DNA from: Candidatus Micrarchaeia archaeon
GTDB taxonomy: Archaea > Micrarchaeota > Micrarchaeia > Anstonellales > Anstonellaceae
DNA length: 42,034 nucleotides
Direction of reading: 5' to 3'
NCBI GenBank assembly: GCA_041662045.1
Contig: JBAZTI010000003.1
Location: 1 to 42,034 of the forward strand
Below the pieces are notes generated by a model that worked only from the letters and a program-made list of their open reading frames with translations, was not told the origin of the DNA and ran no database searches. A program made the position numbers and the translations under genes. The stretch's first letter is position 1. Every line of letters starts with the position of its first letter. Below, piece after piece: positions 3 to 37,083 of this stretch.

Positions 3-284
3 AAGGCGATAGGCCAGGGCGGCACGGGCGGCGAAGCCGACGTGTGCATGAACAGGCTGGTTGCCAAGCAGAACAACCTCAGCATAGATGCCGGAGGCGC
101 GGTTGCGCGGGTGAGGCTCAACAACACGGGGCAGCTGGAGTTCGACTACATCCCCGAAAGGAACACTTATTTAACCATTGTTGCAGAATTGGATTCCGAG
201 CCGCAGCACATCGAGTGGGCAGGGCCCCATGCCAGGGCTTCGAGCGGGGAGGCGGCCAAGCAGGGAGATGTTTATGGGAATTGA
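3..284 (+). CDS. C-terminal fragment of a hypothetical protein, open to the window edge
   Basis: The frame of ORF 42..284 stays open back to nt 3; TGA at 282-284. No recognisable motif. Confidence 0.35.
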   Translation, partial: KAIGQGGTGGEADVCMNRLVAKQNNLSIDAGGAVARVRLNNTGQLEFDYIPERNTYLTIVAELDSEPQHIEWAGPHARASSGEAAKQGDVYGN

Positions 285-3380: not shown

Positions 3381-4333
3381 AGGGGTTCGAGGCATTCACA
3401 GCCCATGTGCAGACGCTCCTCTACGATGCCGAGCTTGACGTCGAGCCGCGCAAGTTCATAGACAATGTGCTCATGGGGTGCTTTGCGCTTGGCGTGGCGG
3501 CAGGGGCAGCCGCATATTTCCTAGCCTCCCCCATGGTGGCGTACGCTGTTGCGCTTGCAATACTCCTGGGAGTGCCCGTCGCAATAAGCGCATACCTCAC
3601 CATGAGGGCGAACAAGCGCACTGCGCAGATAGAGGAGATGCTCCCCAGCTTCCTGTCCATGATGGCGTCCAACATACGCAGCGGGGCGACTTACGACAGG
3701 GCGCTTTTGCTTTCCAGCAGGAAGGAGTTCGGCCCGCTTGCGCGCGAGATAGACAGGGCGGCAAAGCAGACCATAGCGGGAAAGCCGCTGCAGGACGCGC
3801 TCATGGAGATGTCGAAGAGGACGCGCTCCGAGACGTTCGCAAAGACAATCCGCCTCATAGTGGAGGGGATAAACGCAGGGGGCAACCTGGCGGAGATGCT
3901 TGAGATCACGGCAATAGACATCAGGAAATCCTCCTCGCTCAAGAAGGAGGTTTCCGCGACCGTGCTTGTCTACAAGCTGTTCATAGTGATAGCCGCGACA
4001 GTGGGCGCGCCCCTGCTCTACGCGCTCACCGGCTTCCTGATAGACGTGTTCACCGGGATAAGGGGGGCGGGCGAGATGTCCCCGGGCGCGGCGCAGTCCG
4101 CGCAGCTGCCCATGTTCTCGGGCGGGGACGTCATTTCCCAGGACCTGTTCTTCGCATATGCCATAATCGCCATAGCCATGACCACGCTGCTCTCCACGCT
4201 CGCCTCGGGCGTGATAACCAGGGGCAAGGAGTCCGAGGGGCTGCCCGACCTCGGCTGGTCGTTCCTGCTTGCGTTTTCAGTCTTCTTCGGGGTAAGGCTC
4301 GTGCTCGGCTTCATGCTTGGCGCGGTTGCCTGA
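3377..4333 (+). CDS. Second T2SS-F / TadC / FlaJ-like pilus platform membrane protein
   Basis: In-frame ATG at 3377 overlaps the upstream TGA (ATATGA). Same TM-helical domain-TM layout as the preceding gene. The track ORF start at 3056 is an off-frame-looking extension. Confidence 0.65.
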   Translation: MKGFEAFTAHVQTLLYDAELDVEPRKFIDNVLMGCFALGVAAGAAAYFLASPMVAYAVALAILLGVPVAISAYLTMRANKRTAQIEEMLPSFLSMMASNIRSGATYDRALLLSSRKEFGPLAREIDRAAKQTIAGKPLQDALMEMSKRTRSETFAKTIRLIVEGINAGGNLAEMLEITAIDIRKSSSLKKEVSATVLVYKLFIVIAATVGAPLLYALTGFLIDVFTGIRGAGEMSPGAAQSAQLPMFSGGDVISQDLFFAYAIIAIAMTTLLSTLASGVITRGKESEGLPDLGWSFLLAFSVFFGVRLVLGFMLGAVA

Positions 4334-12770: not shown

Positions 12771-13931
12771 TCAGGCAAGGAACTTTTTCTTCTCAATCTT
12801 TTCGCGCAGGTAGTCGCCCACGAAAGAAAGGCGGGGCCCCTGCAGCGCGTCCTGCTCGATTTTCTTTTTCGTCCTCAGGACGGTTTTCAGCTCCTCCACC
12901 CAGTCCTTGTGGCAGGAAATCCAGTCGTAGGAAAGCATCTCCTCGGCGCGCTTGATGTCCACTTCCTTTGCGTTTATGGTGAGCTGGCCCAAAAAGTCGT
13001 AGTCCTTGATGTCGCGCATGGTCACGCCCACGAAGCGCGCCTCGGGCGTGGCGATGTCGTTGCCCAGGTAGGCGAGGTTCATGCTGCCTGACTTTATCGC
13101 CCAGTAGATGTACCAGCCCCAGGCGTCGCAGTCCGTGAACACTATCACGGGAAGCTTGCGGCTCGCGAGCTTGCGGATGAGGCGGCGGCAGCCGCGGCTT
13201 GCCTGCCCCTTGGGGGTGATGAGTATGCAGTTTTCCTTCCTCCAGAACTTGTCCTCGTTCAGCCTCTGCCACATTGCGTCCTTTTCCACTACGAGCACGT
13301 AGTCCGCGTCAACCGACTTGAATTCCATGCCGTTGTCAACATCCGAGGGGATCATCCAGCCGCTCCTGCCCTGCTTCGTGCAGTCTATCTCGGTCTCGTC
13401 CCCCCCGAACTTGTCCCGGAGCACCATGGGGCCTGCCACCACGCCTTTCCTGTCCGTGTTGAGGTTCAGGTCCTCGCGCTTCACTGAGAGGGCGACCTCG
13501 AGGTCCTCCACAAGCGGGTTGCTTTCGCTTTGCTCCGAGAAAAGCTCCTCGTCCAACGTGTCGCCGAGCGAGAACTTGAGCTGGTAGTACAGGCCCCTTA
13601 TGGAGGTGTGCGCATTCTCCTTGAGGAATTTCTTGCACTTGGAGGCGATTGCCACGGTCTGCATGAACTTGCGCGCCTGCCCCACGTTTATGAAGGTGCG
13701 CTCTTCCGTCTTGTCGCCAAGCCTGATGAAGCCCACGCCGTTGTCGTATATTATGTTGCCCTTGCTCCTAAGCGCGGTGGTGAAGGTGGGGGAGCTGTCC
13801 GCCTCGATTTGCGCAAGCATGTCCCTGCCCAGCCGCTCGAGCTTGCCCGCGATGAACTCGCTGCCCTTGCCCGAGTCGGATGCTGACGCGGATGCTTTTT
13901 TCGGTGATTCCTTTGGTGACATGCCAACCAC
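12771..13931 (-). CDS. top6A: DNA topoisomerase VI subunit A (Spo11-like)
   Basis: Catalytic-Tyr region IRGLYYQLK, Toprim motifs VVEKDA and FTDCDAWGWYI. GTG start overlaps the top6B stop (TAGTG); an alternative ATG lies at 13922. Confidence 0.92.
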   Translation of the reverse strand: MVGMSPKESPKKASASASDSGKGSEFIAGKLERLGRDMLAQIEADSSPTFTTALRSKGNIIYDNGVGFIRLGDKTEERTFINVGQARKFMQTVAIASKCKKFLKENAHTSIRGLYYQLKFSLGDTLDEELFSEQSESNPLVEDLEVALSVKREDLNLNTDRKGVVAGPMVLRDKFGGDETEIDCTKQGRSGWMIPSDVDNGMEFKSVDADYVLVVEKDAMWQRLNEDKFWRKENCILITPKGQASRGCRRLIRKLASRKLPVIVFTDCDAWGWYIYWAIKSGSMNLAYLGNDIATPEARFVGVTMRDIKDYDFLGQLTINAKEVDIKRAEEMLSYDWISCHKDWVEELKTVLRTKKKIEQDALQGPRLSFVGDYLREKIEKKKFLA

Positions 13932-15588
13932 TATTCCTCGCCTTCGTCTTCCTCGTTCTTTCCATTCCCGTTCCCGTTCTTGCCGTTCCCGCTCTTTGCC
14001 TCCTCCTCGCCCTCTTCGGACTCTATCTGCGTGGAGTACTTGGTCTCGATGAGCGTGATGAGCTTTTTCTCAATCTCGCCCGCCTTGCCCTTGCCCGCCA
14101 GGTCAGGCAGGTCGTGGGAAAGCTGGGAGACATAGCGGATGATTGCCTTTTTCCTCTCCTTCCTGTCATGGTCGCGGCGTATGCCTGAAAGGTATGCCTG
14201 CAGGTCGCGCGCAGCCTCCATTATCGCGTTCTTTATCTCCTGCACGATTTCCTCGTCGTTTGAGATTGCCTGCTTGCCTGCTGACGTGTAGGGCACGTAG
14301 ACTGATGAGATGTTCACGAAAACCGACAGGGGCTCCTCCTCGAAGTTCTTCAGCTTGTAGCGCTTCCAGTCGATTGCCTTCACCGCCTCGGTGATTGCGC
14401 AGCCCGAATTGTCGAACAGCAACGGAGCGCGGTTGGCATAGCGTATCACCTCGGACGAGGACATGTCGCCTGCGGCTTTCTTCCCTGCCCCGCCCCCGTA
14501 TGCGAGCGCGGCCTCCACCATGAAGGGGATGCCCCCCTTGTATATCTTTGGCGAGCGCTCGGAAACCACCACGAACTCGGGCGCAAGGATGTTTTTCAGC
14601 GACTTTTCCACCTGCTCCTTGCCGATGGGCTTTACAGAGTCCGTCGAAGGCGCAATCCATTTAACCGCGGGGTTTTGTATCGCCTTGATGATTTTCTCCG
14701 CCTCCACCCACTGCAGCTCCTTCGGGTTCTTGTCAAGTCAACATCAGGGCAAAGCGCCTTCACCTCGTCCACCTTTGCCGCGGAGAAGCGCGCGAAGCGC
14801 TCCTGCAGGAACGAGGAGACGCGGCGGCATTCCTTTTCCCTGTGCGCAAAGTCTATCAGGTCGTTTGTGGAAATCCCCATGGGGTGCGGCTGCACAACGA
14901 GGGGCTTGTCAGGCACCCTGTCGGACGAGCGGGGGAACGCGTGCGTCTGGCCCTCTGGGTCGTGGAGCGTTATCTGCAGGTGCGGGTTGGCAAGCGCGGT
15001 CCTGCGCACGTACTCGTACACGCCGAAGCTTGACTTGTCGTATTTCACGTCGGCAAACTCGCCTTCCACCGTGAGGCCGTGCCCGAACTCGCCATCATCC
15101 TTCACCAGGTTCAGGACAAGGGGGGTGTTTGACTTGAGGTCGATTGACACTTCGCATGTGATGCGCCGCGTGTCATAGCGCGAGATTACTTTCACGGGTT
15201 TTCCAGTCGTTATCTGGGAGTACATGGTGCAGCCCGATGCGCCGATTCCCTGCTGGCCGCGCTGCTGCGCATAGCGGTGGAACTTGGTGCCTGCAAGCAT
15301 CTGCCCGAGCGCCTTGCCTATGTGCTTCTCCGGAATGCCGGGCCCGTTGTCCTCCGCAATCACCTTGTAGCGCTCCTTGTCGATTTCCTTTATGGTGATT
15401 TCCACCTCGGGAAGCATGCCGCCCTCCTCGCACGCGTCAAGCGAGTTGGTCACGTATTCGTGCACAATGGTGGTGAGCGAGCGCGTTTTCCCCGAAAAGC
15501 CGAGCATCTGCTGGTTCTTCTTGAAAAACTCCGCAACGGAGTGCTCGCGGAACTCGGAAAAAATCTTTTCTGTCGACGTGGGTGCCAT
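13931..15588 (-). CDS. top6B: DNA topoisomerase VI subunit B (GHKL ATPase); apparent 1-nt frameshift near 14735
   Basis: Bergerat-fold motifs (EYVTNSLDA, DNGPGI, GQQGIGASG) lie in ORF 14632..15588. The transducer domain lies in ORF 13931..14707. The frames join as ...ALCPDVDL-DKNPKELQWVEAEK if one nt is restored in GACTT_GACAAG. Confidence 0.9.
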
Positions 15589-22180: not shown

Positions 22181-22184
22181 TTGA

Positions 22185-22258
22185 CATTTTCACGTAGGTG
22201 AAAATGGCAATAAGTTGTGCGAAGCACAACTGTATCGTCAAGTTGCAAGAGCAACTTG
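22185..22258 (+). repeat. Cluster of three consecutive hairpins between tRNA-Pro and the convergent nth stop
   Basis: CATTTTCAC-GTAG-GTGAAAATG (22185-22206), AGTTGTGC-GAA-GCACAACT (22213-22231), CAAGTTGC-AAGA-GCAACTTG (22239-22258). The 22-mer AAGTTGTGCGAAGCACAACTGT recurs at 23175-23196. Confidence 0.85.
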
Positions 22259-22261
22259 GCG

Positions 22262-22915
22262 CTATTTTTTCTTTAATCCTACTTTAGGGCACAGCTTGTT
22301 CACTGGGCACATTTCGCATTTCGGCCGGCGCGCTATGCAGATTGCCCTGCCGTGGTGCACGAACAGGTCGGAAATCCTGAGCCAGTCCTTGCGCGGGAGA
22401 AGCGCCATCAGGTCTCGCTCTATTTTTTCCTGCTGCCTCTCTCGCGTCCAGCCAAGCAGATGGCTTATCCTGATGGCGTGCGTGTCAACTGGCACGCCCT
22501 CCACCACGCCGTATGCGTTGCCAAGCACAATGTTTGCCGTCTTTCGCGCAACGCCTGGAAGCTTTAGCATCTCCTCCATGGTGCGCGGCACCTGCCCCTT
22601 GTGCTTTTCAGCAATTATCCTGCAGGAGGCGCGTATGTTTTTCGCCTTGTTATGGTAAAAGCCCGTGGAGCGGACAAGGGTTTCAAGCTCGGAAATGTCA
22701 GCCTCGGAAAAGTCTTTTGCAGACCTGTATCTCCTGAAAAGCGCAGGCGTCACAATGTTCACGCGCGCGTCGGTGCACTGCGCCGAGAGGATGGTGGCCA
22801 CAAGAAGCTGGAGAGGCGTGGTGTGCACAAGGGAGCATTTTGCATCAGGGTAGGCGCGCTTGAGAAGGGTTACGATTTTTCGCGCGCGGTCTTTTTTGGC
22901 AGGAAAACTTTCCAT
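22262..22915 (-). CDS. nth: Endonuclease III (DNA glycosylase/AP lyase)
   Basis: HhH-GPD region LPGVARKTANIVLGNAYG, catalytic-Lys context, C-terminal 4Fe-4S cluster loop C-x6-C-x2-C-x5-C (CIARRPKCEMCPVNKLC). Confidence 0.92.
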   Translation of the reverse strand: MESFPAKKDRARKIVTLLKRAYPDAKCSLVHTTPLQLLVATILSAQCTDARVNIVTPALFRRYRSAKDFSEADISELETLVRSTGFYHNKAKNIRASCRIIAEKHKGQVPRTMEEMLKLPGVARKTANIVLGNAYGVVEGVPVDTHAIRISHLLGWTRERQQEKIERDLMALLPRKDWLRISDLFVHHGRAICIARRPKCEMCPVNKLCPKVGLKKK

Positions 22916-22970: not shown

Positions 22971-23125
22971 CGGGCCCGTGGCGCAGCCTGGATAGCGCGG
23001 CAGACTTCTATCCGTAGGGGGCAGATGACTCAGATAATATCCCCCTAACGGTTCACCCCCAATTTGGGCGCATGAACCGGCGATGGAGAAATCTGAAGGT
23101 CGTGAGTTCAAATCTCACCGGGCCC
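22971..23125 (+). tRNA. tRNA-Arg (anticodon TCT) with an ~80-nt intron after position 37 (about 23010-23089)
   Basis: Acceptor GGGCCCG/CGGGCCC, D arm GCGC-AGCCTGGATA-GCGC, anticodon stem GCAGA / TCTGA (27:43 is G.A), loop CT-TCT-A, T arm GTGAG-TTCAAAT-CTCAC, discriminator G. The intron folds into two long stems. Confidence 0.8.
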
Positions 23126-23135
23126 GTTCTTTTTT
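23126..23135 (+). terminator. Oligo-T termination tract after tRNA-Arg
   Basis: TTCTTTTTTC immediately follows the discriminator base. Confidence 0.5.
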
Positions 23136-23137
23136 CA

Positions 23138-23219
23138 AGAAGGTCGTGATCGTCAACTGCGTAGCAGTTGGCGAGAAGTTGTGCGAAGCACAACTGTGAG
23201 TTCAAATCTCACCGGGCCC
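23138..23219 (+). repeat. Second copy of the tRNA-Arg 3' part, interrupted by a pair of hairpins
   Basis: GAAGGTCGTGA (23138-23148) equals 23094-23104. GTGAGTTCAAATCTCACCGGGCCCG (23195-23219) equals 23101-23125. The 46-nt insert holds CAACTGC-GTA-GCAGTTG and AGTTGTGC-GAA-GCACAACT. Confidence 0.9.
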
Positions 23220-23244
23220 GAATTTCCTTTTTATTAAGAAGTAC

Positions 23245-34001: not shown

Positions 34002-34167
34002 GCAGGGATAGCCAAGCTTGGTCAAAGGCGCAGGACTCAGAGAGCCCTTTTTGCTCCTCCCGCAAGCGCTCGTCGCAAAAAGCGCTCGCGGAAAAGTAAA
34101 ATGTGCAACAAGGTCTTCGGAAATCCTGTCGGTTAGCCGTTCGTGGGTTCAAATCCCCCTCCCTGCA
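34002..34167 (+). tRNA. tRNA-Leu (anticodon CAG) with an ~81-nt intron after position 37 (about 34042-34122)
   Basis: Acceptor GCAGGGA/TCCCTGC, D arm GCC-AAGCTTGGTCAAA-GGC, anticodon stem CAGGA/TCCTG, loop CT-CAG-A, long variable arm (CGG-TTAG-CCG), T arm GTGGG-TTCAAAT-CCCCC (one U.C mismatch), discriminator A. Confidence 0.8.
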
Positions 34168-34184
34168 CTTCGCTCTTGCTCAGT

Positions 34185-34248
34185 GCAGGTCGGTTTCGAC
34201 CTGCGGTCGAAATCCCGCCAGCAAGCTGGCGGTCCCCCTCCCTGCACT
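34185..34248 (+). repeat. Degenerate second copy of the tRNA-Leu T-arm/3' end, embedded in two hairpins
   Basis: Hairpin GCAGGTCG-GTTT-CGACCTGC (34185-34204), T-loop-like GGTCGAAATCC, hairpin CGCCAGC-AA-GCTGGCG (34216-34231), then TCCCCCTCCCTGCACT (34233-34248), identical to 34154-34169. Confidence 0.85.
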
Positions 34249-34882
34249 AATCCTTTTTTCCCCTGCCAGTGTCGTAAAGGAGGATGCCTGGGCTCGGCGC
34301 ATAATCGGCATTCCAGTCCTGCAAGTCGAAAAGGTGCCTGGTGCCCCCGTCCGCCGCTTTTATCCCGAACCGCTTGCAAAGCGAGATGGAATAATCCATG
34401 ATGCGCGCGTGCATGCCGTGCAGGCAGATTCCAAGCGCGTGCTTCATGACCAGATCGAATACGTTTTCGCCTTCCTGCGCGTTGAGTTCCGGCACTTTGA
34501 ATGCTTTCACCACCTTGTCGGTGACGCCGCATGCCCTGCAGGGCGTTCCTATCCTGAAAACCAGATCTATGTCGCTTGATGCGCACAGGGGGCTGCCCTT
34601 TATCCTGCCGCCCACCATGTACAGCCTGACCCTGCCCGGGTCCATGCCGCAGTGCGAGTGCGCCTTCACCATGATGGCATATTCCTCGGCCAGGAGCCTC
34701 GCATACTCCGGAAGCCTGACATAGGCGCTTAGAAAGGTTTCCCGCTGCCCGCGGAGATTTTCCGGAGCCCCGTCAAGATCCATGATAAGCTTTTGCAAGT
34801 TGCGCGCCAAGGTTGCGCTTGGGCGGCCGGCAATCAGTGCGCCAGCCGTTGCTTCCGCCTGCTTATAGAGGGGGCCGTTCAC
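34247..34882 (-). CDS. Nucleotidyltransferase (Pol-beta superfamily) domain protein
   Basis: VGGRIKGSPLCASSDIDLVF fits the G-S-x(n)-D-x-D minimal NTase motif. Confidence 0.5.
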   Translation of the reverse strand: MNGPLYKQAEATAGALIAGRPSATLARNLQKLIMDLDGAPENLRGQRETFLSAYVRLPEYARLLAEEYAIMVKAHSHCGMDPGRVRLYMVGGRIKGSPLCASSDIDLVFRIGTPCRACGVTDKVVKAFKVPELNAQEGENVFDLVMKHALGICLHGMHARIMDYSISLCKRFGIKAADGGTRHLFDLQDWNADYAPSPGILLYDTGRGKKD

Positions 34883-35148: not shown

Positions 35149-35304
35149 ATGGCGGTATCAGAGTGCCCGGAATGCACGTTCCACATCCAGCTTGAGGAAG
35201 GGCTGGAGGTAGGGCAGGTCATCGCCTGCCCGGACTGCGGGGCGAAGATAAAGCTTGTGAAGGAGTTCCCGCCGGTGTTTGCGCGCGTGGGAGAGGAGCG
35301 GTGA
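35149..35304 (+). CDS. Small zinc-ribbon protein (LysW-like fold), 51 aa
   Basis: Not in the ORF track (<60 aa). MAVSECPECTFHIQLEEGLEVGQVIACPDCGAKIKLVKEFPPVFARVGEER has CPEC..(17)..CPDC as in LysW-type ribbons, but lacks the EDWGE tail. TATA-like CCTAATTAAATC lies ~30 nt upstream. Confidence 0.5.
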   Translation: MAVSECPECTFHIQLEEGLEVGQVIACPDCGAKIKLVKEFPPVFARVGEER

Positions 35305-35308
35305 GGGA

Positions 35309-36788
35309 ATGGCGGCCGGAAAAACAGCTTTTGCTTCGCTTGTATTCATTTCCCTCATGCTTCCCGCCGCCTTTTGCGCCTGGAGCCAGGCGCTTGACGT
35401 TTTCGTGGCAGACTCAAACGGCCTGCCTGTGCAGGGCGCGAGCATCAGGATAACCTACCAGAAGGCTAGCGGCACCGCAGGCAACGACGGGCTTGTAGAG
35501 GGGAAAACAGGGGAGGACGGGAAATACTACGCGGGCCTTGAAAACACCGTGCCGGAGGGGCTTGAGGACAGGGCGATAAGCGTGGAGGCGCGCGCATACG
35601 GCTGGCTGGAGGAGAAGCAGGCATTGGCTGATGGCAGCGGGCAGGCCGCGGTGGTGGCGTTTGCCGCGCCGTTTGAGCTTTCGAAGGCCACAATAACCGT
35701 GCTCCAGGCAAGCGGGCTGCCGGCAATCGGCGCCTCGGTGTACATAAGCGGAAGCGAGGTGAAGCTGGCCACGGATTACATGGGAAAAGCGGCAGTTTAC
35801 GCGCCTTCGGGGCTTGAGCTGTCGGGCTTTGTCTCGTATGGGGGCGAAGGGGAGTACTTTTCAGCGGCAGCAGGCAGCGGCAGGGAAATCACGGTAACCC
35901 TCCCTGCAGGGGGGGATGCCGGGTCTGGCGGCACCGTGCTTTCGGTGACATTCATAGCTCCTGACAAGTCGGCGCTTGCAGGGGAAAAGGCGGTATTCAC
36001 GTTCGAAGGCAGGAACGTTTCCGCATACACGGACGCAGGAGGGGTGGCGTCAGTTGAAATCCGGGAAAGCGGTCCTGTGCTTGCAAGCGTGAGGAAGAAC
36101 GACCATGACTACGAGTTCTCATTCAACGTGACTGGACGGCAGCCCGAAAAGCGAAACCGCGGCGCTTGCCCCGCTCCTCAAGATAGACTATTTCGAGTCA
36201 AGCCCCGAGGGAAACGGGTGCTACCAGCTCGCGGCAAAGGTGAGCGACCCGAGGGCGAACAGGCCGATAACGGTTCGGATGATGCAGGTGAACAGCGACA
36301 GCGTGCCTGTGGGCGAGATAAAGGTGTCGGTGGACGAAAACGGGGTCTATGCCGGAAGGGTGTGCGTCAGGGAGGACGCGCTGGTGAGGGTGGTGGCGTC
36401 AAACGCCTATGAGACCACGGAGAAGGCGTTTTCGCTTGCCGCGTCAGTCAAGCCGCCGCCCCAGCCCGAGCCTGGCGAGCCTGAGCCCCAGCCGGTTGCG
36501 CCTGAGCCTTCGGTTCCGGCCCAGCCTGCAAGGGCAGTCACGCTTGAGGAAACGCTGGGCACGCTTGCCGCAGCGGCGGTGATGGTTGCGCTGGTGGCAG
36601 GGATAGGGATTGTCTTCCTTGGCAGGCACAACCCCCAGGCTGCAGGAGGGATGCTGAAGGCGGCAGGCCAGATGCAGGAGCTTTTCATGAGAAGCATAGC
36701 GCGCCCGATACTGGAGTACCTCAGGTCGGTCTTCAAGAAAAAGGAGCCGCCGCAGCAGACTTTCGGGCAGCAGCAAAAGGGGCAATGA
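35309..36788 (+). CDS. Secreted protein with carboxypeptidase-regulatory-like beta-sandwich repeats, a Pro/Glu linker and a C-terminal TM anchor; apparent 1-nt frameshift near 36131
   Basis: The signal peptide MAAGKTAFASLVFISLMLPAAFCAWS and repeats lie in frame 1 up to ..YEFSFNV. A credible continuation (LDGSPKSETAALAPLLKIDYFESSP...PPPQPEPGEPEPQP...TM) lies in the frame of ORF 36240..36788. The frame-1 continuation is Arg/Gly-rich nonsense. Confidence 0.6.
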
Positions 36789-36833: not shown

Positions 36834-37083
36834 TTATTTGAGCCGAATCGCATCAAGGTTCATCGGGGCTCGCGAGTCGATGCGCAACGCTAGTTGCGCA
36901 GATTTTCAGCCTCAGCTGAAAAGACGAGCGGGCTCTACTTGAGCCTGATGGCATCCAAATTCATGGGTGCGCGCGAGTCGACGGACAACCGCAGTTGGAC
37001 GGATTTTCAGCGCAGCTGAAAACAAGAGCGCCATCCTATTTCAGCCTGATAGCATCAAGATTCATTGGCGCTCTTGAATCGAT
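36834..37083 (-). repeat. Tandem array (period 101 nt, 3 copies) of the aCPSF1 3' coding tail plus a hairpin-bearing spacer
   Basis: Tails at 37036-37083 (in the gene), 36935-36982 and 36834-36881. Spacers of 53 nt each hold TTTTCAGC-N3/4-GCTGAAAA (37004-37022, 36903-36922) and a CAAC-N4-GTTG stem (36882-36899 is perfect). Confidence 0.95.

Follow-up and report, generated by a model that had tools for sequence, protein, structure and literature searches.

Streptococcal CIMEs are an example of non-autonomous miniature elements flanked by att sites. In phage 21 and e14 at icd of E. coli, the integrated DNA replaces the 3′ end of the gene, and what remains of the resident end is a displaced pseudo-copy. 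The ends of IS200/IS605 elements are similar hairpins that are bound by one transposase, and the tRNA-like processing elements include the t-elements of haloarchaea and plant mitochondria as well as mascRNA. For archaea, a model of elements integrated at tRNA genes is available (Sugahara et al. 2012, PMC3293823). In IS608, the distance from target to hairpin is 19 nt and that from hairpin to end is 10 nt, with the guide 5′ of the hairpin foot (PMC3201880). The casposase of Aciduliprofundum boonei makes duplications of 14-15 bp and needs a segment of the tRNA-Pro T-loop as a 'leader'; the duplication at the A. boonei casposon overlaps the tRNA by only 5 bp (PMC5137440).

Here, we analyzed a 42,034-nt stretch of DNA from Candidatus Micrarchaeia (the window), in which the repeated 3′ end of a tRNA-Leu gene marks the insertion of a 65-nt non-coding cassette with three hairpins. 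We consider it fairly probable that the 79-nt period of the repeat is one copy ('variant A') of a cassette family that is mobile among Candidatus Micrarchaeia. Its members sit at tRNA gene ends and at the end of at least one protein gene, beside a copy of the end concerned, and in Micrarchaeia, which are DPANN archaea, the family is apparently undescribed so far. To our knowledge, few structured insertions are smaller than these cassettes. The features of the tRNA-Leu locus are:

34002-34167, plus strand: tRNA-Leu(CAG) gene (Rfam RF00005, 37.7 bits against a threshold of 29, full length).
34042-34122, plus strand: tRNA-Leu intron of about 81 nt at the canonical 37/38 position, with a relaxed BHB.
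34154-34169, plus strand: first copy of the 16-mer, made up of the 'core' (tRNA positions 60-73, 34154-34167) and CT.
34168-34181, plus strand: linker CTTCGCTCTTGCTC, about 14 nt.
34182-34189, plus strand: anti-core AGTGCAGG, complementary to CCTGCACT of either flanking copy.
34183-34247, plus strand: three-way junction of P1, hp1 and hp2 (family covariance model, 85.5 bits, E = 2e-19).
34192-34214, plus strand: hp1, GGTTTCGACC-TGC-GGTCGAAATC, a family-conserved hairpin of the form TTTY-stem-loop-stem-RAAATC.
34215-34232, plus strand: hp2, CCGCCAGC-AA-GCTGGCGG, in which 7 of 8 pairs covary.
34233-34248, plus strand: second copy of the 16-mer, made up of the core (34233-34246) and CT.
34254-34259, plus strand: oligo-T (T6), read from the sequence and now 3′ of the cassette.

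The first-pass annotation had reported that the 3′ end of tRNA-Leu is present twice, and exact copies of TCCCCCTCCCTGCACT do occur at 34154-34169 and 34233-34248, 79 nt apart, with no third site even when up to two mismatches are allowed. Two matches were found in none of 100 dinucleotide shuffles. A chance repeat is ruled out by these shuffles together with recurrence in independent assemblies, and an assembly artefact by the same architecture in independent NCBI, JGI and ENA assemblies. The functional tRNA-Leu gene uses the first copy: its positions T60-A73 are 34154-34167, the discriminator A73 is 34167, and CCA is not encoded. The exons are matched in more than 25 Micrarchaeia loci; a default ARAGORN run made no call at tRNA-Leu(CAG). 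The second copy lies outside any tRNA, because the T-stem 5′ strand and the T-loop are both missing upstream of it, and a permissive Rfam scan of 34150-34275 gave no tRNA match in the second unit. It had also been claimed that a good oligo-T tract follows only the second copy, and the sole run is indeed the T6 at 34254-34259, likely the archaeal terminator of the tRNA-Leu transcription unit. Directly downstream, 34247-34882 on the minus strand encodes an orphan ORF of 211 aa, which was considered as a split integrase and rejected, as it has no Pfam match and is not an integrase. The search gave one other homologue of it, a distant protein named 'glutamine synthetase adenylyltransferase' at source, and its equal length to the ORF behind tRNA-Arg is a coincidence.

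The unit consists, in order, of linker, anti-core, hp1, hp2 and the copy of tRNA positions 60-73. The linker motif CGCTCTTG also occurs in units behind tRNA-Pro (as CGCTTTG) and FttA. Extended through TC to the GG at 34192-34193, the anti-core mirrors core positions 64-73; this GG can pair inside hp1 instead. Both hairpins reported upstream of the second copy are present, at 34185-34204 and 34215-34232. The former, an 8-bp hairpin of GCAGGTCG and CGACCTGC, is limited to variant A and overlaps hp1. The latter is hp2, the sequence of which differs among variants and which in every case is a hairpin immediately 5′ of the core copy. GGTCGAAATCC forms the 3′ arm of hp1, and the TTTY..RAAATC hairpin is also present in the units that follow tRNA-Arg, tRNA-Pro and the protein gene FttA. 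The earlier reading of a degenerate T-arm had to be abandoned, since the T-loop-like motif is the element's own and is also found behind FttA. A copy of the tRNA 3′ half starting at the anticodon stem was likewise rejected: the 72% match between GAAATCCTGTCGGTTAGC and GAAATCCCGCCAGCAAGC is explained by the element's AAATCC motif, which occurs away from tRNAs too.

The left boundary is fixed at A|TC (T-loop position 59/60 in tRNAs), and the copied target runs from there to the gene end; the boundary reads GTTCAAA|TC in tRNAs and GTTCCACA|TC in FttA. There is no ORF within the unit, and inspection of the Leu, Arg and Pro unit sequences revealed no terminal inverted repeats consistent between left and right unit ends. 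A MITE (a derivative of a DDE transposon) was discarded on the same grounds, the repeat being the gene's own end.

The folding z-score of 34183-34247 is -7.2, and values across units range from -5.4 to -7.2. In an alignment of 13 distinct units, which was fitted by the covariance model and therefore favors the structure, 94.8% of cells are paired and double changes occur in 17 of 26 pairs. Compensatory changes were found at 7 of 10 pairs of helix P1, in which the local tRNA end supplies the 3′ strand. None of 500 shuffles reaches the observed covariation, and no slid control has more than 7 compensated cells, against 56 in the alignment. Within this modeled alignment, covariation shows the predicted three-way-junction fold to be under selection. 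No curated family in Rfam 15 matched at the gathering score or up to an E-value of 10 (the best match, at 23.9 bits versus a threshold of 48, is an unrelated sRNA on the opposite strand), and no core motifs of hammerhead or other small ribozymes were seen by eye.

The 30 related tRNA-Leu loci carry zero, one or two tandem units each, of at least six sequence variants. Units are absent from L013, L018/L036, L024, L027, L030, L037, L040, L041 and L044; one unit is present in the window, L026, L031, L043 and L006, and two in L033, L035 and L039. Locus L017, where the three copies contain a scaffold gap (N10), was left out of the inference. The oligo-T tract is always 3′ of the last core. The empty-site comparison that the first-pass annotation had proposed yielded nine or more related loci (L013, L018, L041 and L044 among them) with oligo-T directly after the tRNA. 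Comparison among relatives shows the cassette to behave as an insertion that is present or absent and stacks in tandem. From anti-core to core, variant A of L033 is identical to that of the window and that of L035 is 1 nt off (98-100%). The upstream MacB genes of L033 and L035 are 65% identical to that of the window and 80% identical to each other, and the window's nearest relatives by flank (83%) are without variant A, their sites being empty. Near-identical units thus occur in hosts with flanks only 65% identical, and these comparisons show horizontal spread of variant A, with exchange of the cassette between divergent hosts. In both mixed arrays, variant A is the tRNA-proximal unit.

The cassette occurs behind three tRNAs and one protein gene. 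The true homologue of the Leu unit behind tRNA-Arg is found in related genomes. The tRNA-Arg unit (L048/L049, and an array in L039) ends in TCTCACCGGGCCCG and the tRNA-Pro unit (L048) in TCTCAGCGGCCCCA, each end being exactly positions 60-73 of the local tRNA. The corresponding genes of the window are followed by:

23127-23220, plus strand: second copy behind tRNA-Arg(TCT), consisting of linker, AAGGTCGTGA, a 45-nt two-hairpin insert and TGTGAGTTCAAATCTCACCGGGCCCG.
22181-22262, plus strand: trailer of tRNA-Pro with three hairpins (z = -7.3).

The second copy at tRNA-Arg in the window is of a related but different type and folds as a cloverleaf. The layout of the tRNA-Leu locus had been said to parallel it; the likeness is a loose one, and the Arg locus differs in having a longer 3′-half copy and a two-hairpin insert. 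The tRNA-Pro trailer and the tRNA-Arg insert have one hairpin (GTTGTGCGAAGCACAACTGT) in common, letter for letter, and a core copy is absent from 22181-22262.

The protein gene in question is FttA (aCPSF1), where two units lie between three copies of the gene end:

36834-37083, minus strand: cassettes behind FttA.
37083-37036, minus strand: FttA gene end, G0.
37035-36983, minus strand: unit 1.
36982-36935, minus strand: copy G1.
36934-36882, minus strand: unit 2.
36881-36834, minus strand: copy G2.

Comparison of the three copies (last 15 codons) reveals differences at 11-12 of 48 nt, by which 0-1 codons are changed non-synonymously, a pattern with a probability of <5e-5 under random drift. 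As the copies differ almost only synonymously, they are best regarded, from their sequences, as functional gene ends that were imported or displaced, and not as duplications of the target that have drifted. The closest relative at FttA (L070) has a cassette and a synonymous copy in the same place; seven other FttA loci are without a cassette, among them L031, which retains a short degenerate copy of the gene end. Synonymous codons of G0 (TCA AGA GCG) pair perfectly over 10 bp with the unit 1 linker, and the anti-core of this unit has its pairing partner 25 nt upstream of the junction instead of at it. An overlap of G2 with the start of the downstream gene (TAATG) was considered and rejected, relatives showing the next gene to be convergent.

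Larger elements are also found at tRNA-Leu, which on present comparisons is an insertion hotspot in relatives. A 404-aa tyrosine integrase (PF00589) is encoded 93 nt past tRNA-Leu in L034, a 4.7-kb island bounded by the same 13-nt core lies distal to the two units of L033, and L009 has a group II intron beside the gene. In the manner of att sites, the 14-nt core flanks the unit and the 13-nt core flanks the L033 island. Homology between this island and the L034 integrase element amounts to about 20 nt of the left end and one 79-nt coding match, which is uninformative on a common parent. The 42-kb window encodes no recombinase, transposase, Cas1 or integrase, and none is linked to any unit. In IMG/VR, the 16-mer occurs only inside unrelated coding regions, with no viral attP, and searches with hp1 patterns gave chance matches or none. 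Searches of INPHARED and PLSDB with blastn gave no match, and neither these databases nor IMG/VR contained a free or larger parent with hp1 and hp2.

We favor, and infer, entry through a recombination event that takes place on the A|TC boundary, where T-loop and T-stem meet, or immediately to its right. Entry would be site-specific, possibly via tyrosine integrases like the one beside tRNA-Leu in L034, or homology-assisted, with the repeated gene end serving as an arm. The incoming DNA would carry its own version of the gene end, so that the upstream copy would complete the functional tRNA and the resident end would be shifted downstream beside the native oligo-T. The tRNA would still be made from the first copy by RNase Z cleavage after A73 and CCA addition, the cassette probably being co-transcribed as a structured 3′ trailer. 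Several points count against recombination. As a substrate for integration, a double-stranded circle of 79 bp is physically implausible. Identity across the loop is normally required by tyrosine integrases with a T-loop crossover, whereas the identity of the cassette starts only at T60. The model also gives no account of how the anti-core comes to match each new target.

A bolder reading, which we put forward tentatively, is that these are ultra-small (about 65-80 nt) structured mobile cassettes of a previously undescribed class. They would recognize the T-loop motif GTTCAAA|TC and its look-alikes in protein genes, carry a guide-like segment that complements the target end as well as a replacement gene end, and build polar arrays behind essential genes. 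If so, either insertion would proceed by a new mechanism, guide-assisted or using a folded single strand, or the insertion of mobile elements would be linked directly, at the level of mechanism, to the birth of non-canonical 59/60 tRNA introns.

A miniature transposon that moves as a single strand (HUH/Y1, IS200/IS605-like) seems to us unlikely. Its top strand would fold, and the anti-core just 5′ of hp1 would be a guide pairing with the last bases of the target; insertion would take place 3′ of the target, and the right end would carry the same sequence because the same guide must recognize both. Such an element would account for the absence of terminal inverted repeats and the two subterminal hairpins, and for an anti-core that is placed 5′ of the hp1 foot, at a distance of 2 nt, and can pair equally with the bases before the left and the right junction. 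The target-hairpin and hairpin-end distances of the cassette are 24 and 14 nt, compared with 19 and 10 nt in IS608 (PMC3201880). In the Leu, Arg and Pro units, anti-core pairing covaries with the target. The units are inserted in tandem and in one specific orientation, and the 14-nt repeat flanking the unit could be read as identical left and right cleavage sites. However, hp1 is unlike hp2, which differs between variants and, unlike hp1, has no guide 5′ of its foot. The FttA copies, at 48 nt and synonymously different, are unexpected for a transposon end, the anti-core of FttA unit 1 pairs 25 nt off the junction, and no TnpA was seen.

That the cassette is a host-useful RNA, instead of or besides a selfish insertion, is a doubtful proposition. 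It would be a tRNA-like 'top-half' mimic, with P1 imitating the acceptor/T-stem stack and ending in the tRNA's 3′ strand and discriminator, and would act as an RNA of about 65 nt freed by RNase P and RNase Z, or as a guide for 3′ processing. Many close relatives do without the cassette, no Rfam family matched, and the FttA units end in 34 more nt of coding copy, not in a tRNA-like end. These observations speak against a mimic, even though there is no terminator between tRNA and cassette, loops of the UUCG type and G-U-compatible pairs occur, helix covariation is strong, P1 has 10-11 positions (near the 12-bp acceptor/T stack), and G0 at FttA forms its 10-bp pairing with the linker.

We regard it as quite improbable that the cassette is the remnant of a larger virus or plasmid, with attL and attR adjoining after an internal deletion. 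Direct repeats of a tRNA 3′ end are a classic integration signature, and bona fide integrated elements occur at the same site in relatives. The same junctions and architecture in at least six Leu variants and at Arg, Pro and FttA would not arise from independent deletions, though, and a remnant would not explain the compensatory evolution of the interior. No large element with the cassette's arms was found, those of L033 and L034 included. The first-pass annotation had named, as what would refute it, an attR left behind in this lineage only; that scenario fails in view of at least six variants, three tRNAs, covariation and sharing across hosts.

We consider cut-and-paste or Cas1-type (casposase-like) insertion with a fixed 14-15-bp target duplication beside the T-loop very unlikely. 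A 14-nt duplication that begins right after the T-loop in three tRNAs recalls the A. boonei casposase, with its T-loop 'leader' and 14-15-bp duplications (PMC5137440), and new units seem to be added proximally. Yet terminal inverted repeats are absent, Cas1 is absent from the window, the duplication at FttA is 48 nt with copies diverged under coding constraint, and distal cores have element-specific variants of the left edge (TTCCCC, CCCCCC).

The first-pass annotation had also suggested evaluating the hairpin insert for a BHB. None that removes one unit (77-81 nt) was found in a search that very relaxed motifs could escape: the best candidate (59/60 to 59′/60′), its bases locked in hp2, pairs over 3 bp in the outer helix, at 3/4 positions in the central helix and nowhere in the inner helix, versus 6 bp, 3/4 and 2 bp for the canonical intron of the same gene. 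A BHB intron or alternative 3′ exon, in which position 59 is spliced to the second copy, is hardly credible, as the first copy already completes the tRNA and splicing is needless, although relatives have genuine 59/60 T-loop introns in tRNA-Leu and tRNA-Arg where the core begins, the 3′ part of these resembles hp2 of variant A, and a passage in PMC3239211 reports micrarchaeal EndA to be broad in specificity.

A mobile cassette entering by recombination, the reading we prefer, would make these loci a tractable case of gene-end targeting in little-studied DPANN archaea, with mobile DNA at the ends of essential genes (tRNAs and the termination factor FttA) that are left unbroken. The FttA locus is a natural experiment in which 'imported gene end' and 'target duplication' can be separated. 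For annotation, where an intron-containing tRNA in these genomes is followed by a second copy of its end, that copy should not be taken for a pseudogene or an assembly error. The questions touched on include the gain of non-canonical archaeal tRNA introns and mobile elements as drivers of tRNA gene disruption.

Compared with att-flanked elements at tRNA genes, the cassette likewise lies between direct repeats of the tRNA 3′ end, the gene is completed by the copy on the element side, units accrete in tandem at one site, and integrase-bearing elements occur there in relatives. In contrast, its insert is 63-77 nt and geneless with a conserved, covarying three-hairpin fold, one family has four targets, and it has a segment complementary to the target end. 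As in phage 21 and e14 at icd, the alternative 3′ end at FttA is mainly synonymous, but about 53 nt of hairpins lie between the copies, twice in tandem, where the phage case is a whole prophage. With the single-strand transposons of the IS200/IS605 family and their miniature derivatives (PATEs), the cassette shares hairpin ends that are not inverted repeats, a target-pairing guide on the 5′ side of the hairpin foot, and comparable distances. Unlike IS200/IS605, which have a 4-5-nt target, the cassette has repeats of 14-48 nt, two unlike hairpins, no transposase seen and FttA copies of coding grade. The tRNA 3′-end target, the adjacent T-loop determinant and the 14-15-bp duplication resemble casposons, from which the cassette differs in having neither terminal inverted repeats nor genes and in its 48-nt duplication at FttA. 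An acceptor-like helix that ends in the tRNA 3′ strand downstream of the gene is reminiscent of t-elements and mascRNA; the cassette differs in its mobile distribution and in lacking a T-arm. Finally, the 59/60 boundary and a similar hairpin beside T60 are shared with the non-canonical tRNA introns of archaea (Thermoproteales), for which transposition has been proposed, and Micrarchaeia relatives have homologous 59/60 T-loop introns in two tRNAs. Unlike these introns, the cassette lies outside the mature tRNA, with a duplicate 3′ exon and no BHB. Because the cassette and the mobile T-loop introns share the 59/60 boundary and a hairpin, the family bears on the origins of tRNA introns.

The tRNA-Leu gene of the window is followed by a cassette that is a structured, horizontally shared, stackable insertion polymorphism, always lying between two copies of the end of its target gene. 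As the first-pass annotation had noticed, the 16-mer at the tRNA-Leu 3' end, TCCCCCTCCCTGCACT, is duplicated. It occurs exactly at 34154 and 34233 and at no other site (two matches in 0 of 100 shuffles), and the sole oligo-T run (34254-34259) is located after the second copy. Bases 1-14, hereafter the core, span tRNA positions 60-73, from the final T-loop base through the 3' strands of the T-stem and acceptor to the discriminator. Each unit consists of a linker, an anti-core, a conserved hairpin (hp1) and a variable hairpin (hp2), followed by the copied gene end.

Features of the tRNA loci in the window
22181-22262: tRNA-Pro trailer, three strong hairpins (z = -7.3)
22972-23126: tRNA-Arg(TCT), intron-containing, found by Rfam
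23127-23220: tRNA-Arg second copy; its T-stem 5' strand holds an insert of 45 nt with two hairpins
34002-34167: tRNA-Leu(CAG), intron-containing, found by Rfam
First segment between the 16-mer copies: linker, 14 nt
Between the 16-mer copies: anti-core AGTGCAGG, complementary to CCTGCACT of either copy
34192-34214, between the 16-mer copies: hp1 hairpin
34215-34232, between the 16-mer copies: hp2 hairpin

The first copy runs on directly from the T-arm, so tRNA-Leu itself should be unaffected, and the cassette is probably part of the tRNA 3' trailer. The T-stem (34146-34158, GTGGG/CCCCC) has a U50-C64 mismatch that is kept in most Micrarchaeia loci. Both intron-containing tRNAs were missed by a default ARAGORN run and wrongly labeled with its intron option. 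Their 37/38 introns (tRNA-Leu, 34042-34122; tRNA-Arg, 23010-23091) are unusually long, ~81-83 nt, and are conserved, yet extra hairpins lengthen them in relatives, to ~140 nt (L018, L031; L numbers denote related loci). Core-genome genes in the window include PolD DP2, Topo VI, a proteasome subunit, FttA/aCPSF1 and ArgRS, and the best ArgRS and FttA matches (84-95% amino-acid identity) assign it to Candidatus Micrarchaeia (DPANN). Topo VI subunit B (13931-15588, minus strand) is seen as two overlapping ORFs, HATPase (14632-15588) and transducer (13931-14707), through a frameshift or because the gene is split.

About 30 Micrarchaeia tRNA-Leu(CAG) loci sharing these exons came from a scan over species-representative genomes and another over JGI metagenomes; in most of them synteny is kept, and a MacB-type permease lies upstream. 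Downstream of the tRNA these loci have 0, 1 or 2 tandem units, each 77-91 nt long, so the proposed empty-site comparison succeeded. The 14-nt core closes each unit, and oligo-T invariably follows the last core. At least six variants (A-F) have one common architecture: linker YTCRCTYYKYTC, anti-core (R)TGCAGG, TC, hp1 GGGTTTTGC-loop-GCAAAATC, and hp2, whose sequences are unrelated between variants. The window unit is variant A, which from anti-core to core is identical in L033 and differs by one base in L035. The flanking permease gene of these two hosts is only 65% identical to that of the window (80% between the two), and their tRNA introns differ as well. L041 and L042, nearest to the window by flank (83%), lack this variant. 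Variant A is tRNA-proximal in both mixed arrays, A+C (L033) and A+B (L035). Such a pattern marks an insertion that has been spreading recently. Near-identical variant A across divergent flanks, and its absence from the nearest relatives, rule out an ancient duplication passed on vertically; the scar of a larger element deleted in this lineage only, which the first-pass annotation had allowed for, does not hold either, variant A being shared by hosts with divergent flanks.

Another small element, tttttCCGCAgaaaaaTGCGG-GGYGCAGTCGAA..TTCGAGT.GCRCC-CTGCA, follows the last core in L038, L042, L043, L017 and L035; its 3' end is a 7-nt tRNA-end copy (CCCTGCA), then oligo-T. A CCCTGCA copy is also present in L010, 27 nt downstream. 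In bacterial Omnitrophota, tRNA-Leu genes with the same T-arm/acceptor sequence have short 3'-end repeats downstream (L005, 150-nt spacing; L007, 10-nt tandem), unrelated in sequence to the archaeal units.

Units also occur behind other tRNAs. Around ArgRS homologues the order EndoIII / tRNA-Arg / 130-aa ORF / ArgRS is kept, and in L048/L049 an 84-nt unit follows tRNA-Arg, with the linker of Leu units, the same hp1 (GTTTTGCGC-TTCG-GCGCAAAATC) and a 3' end, TCTCACCGGGCCCG, equal to tRNA-Arg positions 60-73. With three Leu units as input, a covariance model recovers all of these Arg units, including a tandem array in L039, and detects one more unit in L048, located after tRNA-Pro, whose 3' end is TCTCAGCGGCCCCA, tRNA-Pro positions 60-73. 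In Leu, Arg and Pro units alike, the stretch immediately 5' of hp1 complements the core of its own locus (Leu TGCAGG-TC-GGG, Arg CCGGTG, Pro TGtGtCCGCTG). The parallel drawn earlier with the window tRNA-Arg locus holds in part: a 3' copy with a hairpin insert is there (cloverleaf fold, z = -5.0), but it is of a different type, comprising the 3' half from ~position 43. In L050/L051 its counterpart has diverged, and the T-stem there is compensated (GAGAG/CTCTC). The tRNA-Pro trailer hairpin GTTGTGCGAAGCACAACTGT is identical to 23178-23197 of the tRNA-Arg insert, and TCGTCAAGTTGC..GCAACTTGGCG resembles the other insert hairpin, in swapped order, as though the genome had a second family of repeated hairpin modules. 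TTTTGCC..GGCAAAA-type hairpin clusters lie in intergenic regions away from tRNA ends (L009 ~3750-3900, L031 ~560-700, L039 ~3650-3730), and such modules may be common across these genomes.

The units share a three-way junction formed by the core/anti-core helix (P1), hp1 and hp2. In an alignment of 13 distinct units, guided by the model and, as a caveat, fitted to it, 94.8% of cells are paired and both sides change at 17 of 26 pairs (56 cells), a level reached by 0 of 500 shuffles; sliding partners by 1-3 columns left no more than 7 of these cells. The changes come from each of the three helices (P1 7/10, hp1 3/8, hp2 7/8 pairs). Single-sequence folds, independent of the model, gave the same junction (z-scores -5.4 to -7.2).

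The fourth target is a protein gene, and it helps to tell the possible mechanisms apart. A weak covariance-model match lies directly downstream of FttA in the window.

Features of the FttA locus in the window
37083-37036, minus strand: G0, last 15 codons and stop of FttA
Within 36834-37083, minus strand, after G0: unit 1, G1 (48 nt), unit 2, G2

Unit 1 has linker GATGGCGCTCTTG, hp1 TTTTCAGC-TGC-GCTGAAAA, then hp2. The linker sequence GGCGCTCTTG can pair without mismatch with CAAGAGCGCC of G0, and it includes the CGCTCTTG motif of Leu linkers, which the tRNA-Pro unit has as CGCTTTG. On its left side the repeated segment is bounded by GTTCCACA|TCGA, similar to the tRNA boundary GTTCAAA|TC. G0 and its downstream copies G1 and G2 differ mutually at 11-12 of 48 positions, and all translate as IDSRAPMNLDAIRLK* with one I/V change only (P <= 5e-5 that 10-14 random substitutions would leave no more than one codon changed non-synonymously). 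As the changes are almost only synonymous, all three diverged while serving as working gene ends, and the copies were imported with cassettes or displaced by them; target-site duplications drifted in place are ruled out by the same divergence. In the closest relative (L070/L071), whose FttA is 95% identical, this place is taken by a multi-hairpin cassette of 250 nt together with a further synonymous copy. FttA is not followed by a cassette in L072-L075, L031 or L039; L031 has a short degenerate FttA-end copy directly after the stop codon. The convergent Big_1/DUF7382 surface-protein gene (35279-36788) is in two frames (35279-36412 and 36240-36788), and its orthologues are single ORFs of 485-497 aa.

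The tRNA-Leu 3' flank is a hotspot, with three other kinds of mobile DNA there in relatives. L034, syntenic with the window, encodes a 404-aa tyrosine integrase (PF00589, E = 5e-21) starting 93 nt after tRNA-Leu, and this region is an integrated element. The integrase (1553-2767) has a C-terminal zinc ribbon, and genes for a DNA methylase and an HFX_2341-like protein come after it; a similar arrangement, with a tyrosine integrase directly after tRNA-Leu, lies at the L010 contig end. In L033 a 4.7-kb island follows two units and ends in CCCCCTCCCTGCA and oligo-T. A group II intron domain V/VI (60-135, plus strand; Rfam, 43.5 bits) adjoins the tRNA-Leu 3' flank on the opposite strand in L009 (MAG GCA_026396415.1, closest to the window by FttA). 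T-loop introns of ~40-48 nt occur at 59/60 in tRNA-Leu (L022, L031, L033) and tRNA-Arg (L045, L050), with a reasonable hand-derived BHB (T-stem, AA|T bulge, TCA:TGA, AA|C bulge, GCCG:CGGC). They are homologous between the two tRNAs, a hint that introns are mobile in Micrarchaeia. The 3' part of these introns, GCCAGC-loop-GCTGAC-AA|T60, is similar to variant A hp2, GCCAGC-AA-GCTGGC-GG|T60; cassette and intron therefore abut the same nucleotide.

The most likely reading is that cassettes enter by recombining at the A|TC boundary; incoming DNA would supply the functional gene end and the resident end would be pushed toward the native terminator. Recombination at A|TC would explain the fixed left boundary in three tRNAs and in the T-loop-like FttA site, make the repeat length (14 vs 48 nt) the mere distance to the gene's end, and explain the synonymous divergence of FttA copies, the left-edge variants that distinguish distal cores by element (variants D and F, TTCCCC; island, CCCCCC) and tandem accretion beside integrase-bearing elements. 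Since target-homologous sequence lies on both sides, ordinary homologous repair could also copy an existing cassette into empty alleles. The main rival is an IS200/IS605-like element: the anti-core and hairpin geometry resembles the guide and hairpin ends of those elements, but the FttA data fit poorly. A BHB intron, raised earlier, found no support, no BHB able to excise one unit being found, unlike the canonical tRNA-Leu intron, which registers as a relaxed BHB. A coding element is ruled out, as the unit has no ORF; no recombinase is encoded in the 42-kb window.

The cassette has no match in Rfam or among phage, plasmid or IMG/VR sequences, and a literature search returned nothing on such a family. 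Repeats of tRNA ends arising from integration are textbook. As far as our searches and knowledge go, what is undescribed is the combination: a gene-less family of 65-80-nt cassettes with a conserved, covarying three-way junction; anti-cores matched to the target; four targets, one a protein gene with coding-grade displaced ends; and a boundary in common with mobile T-loop introns. Among known systems we file the cassettes with miniature integrative cassettes, with a substantial chance that their mechanism is new.
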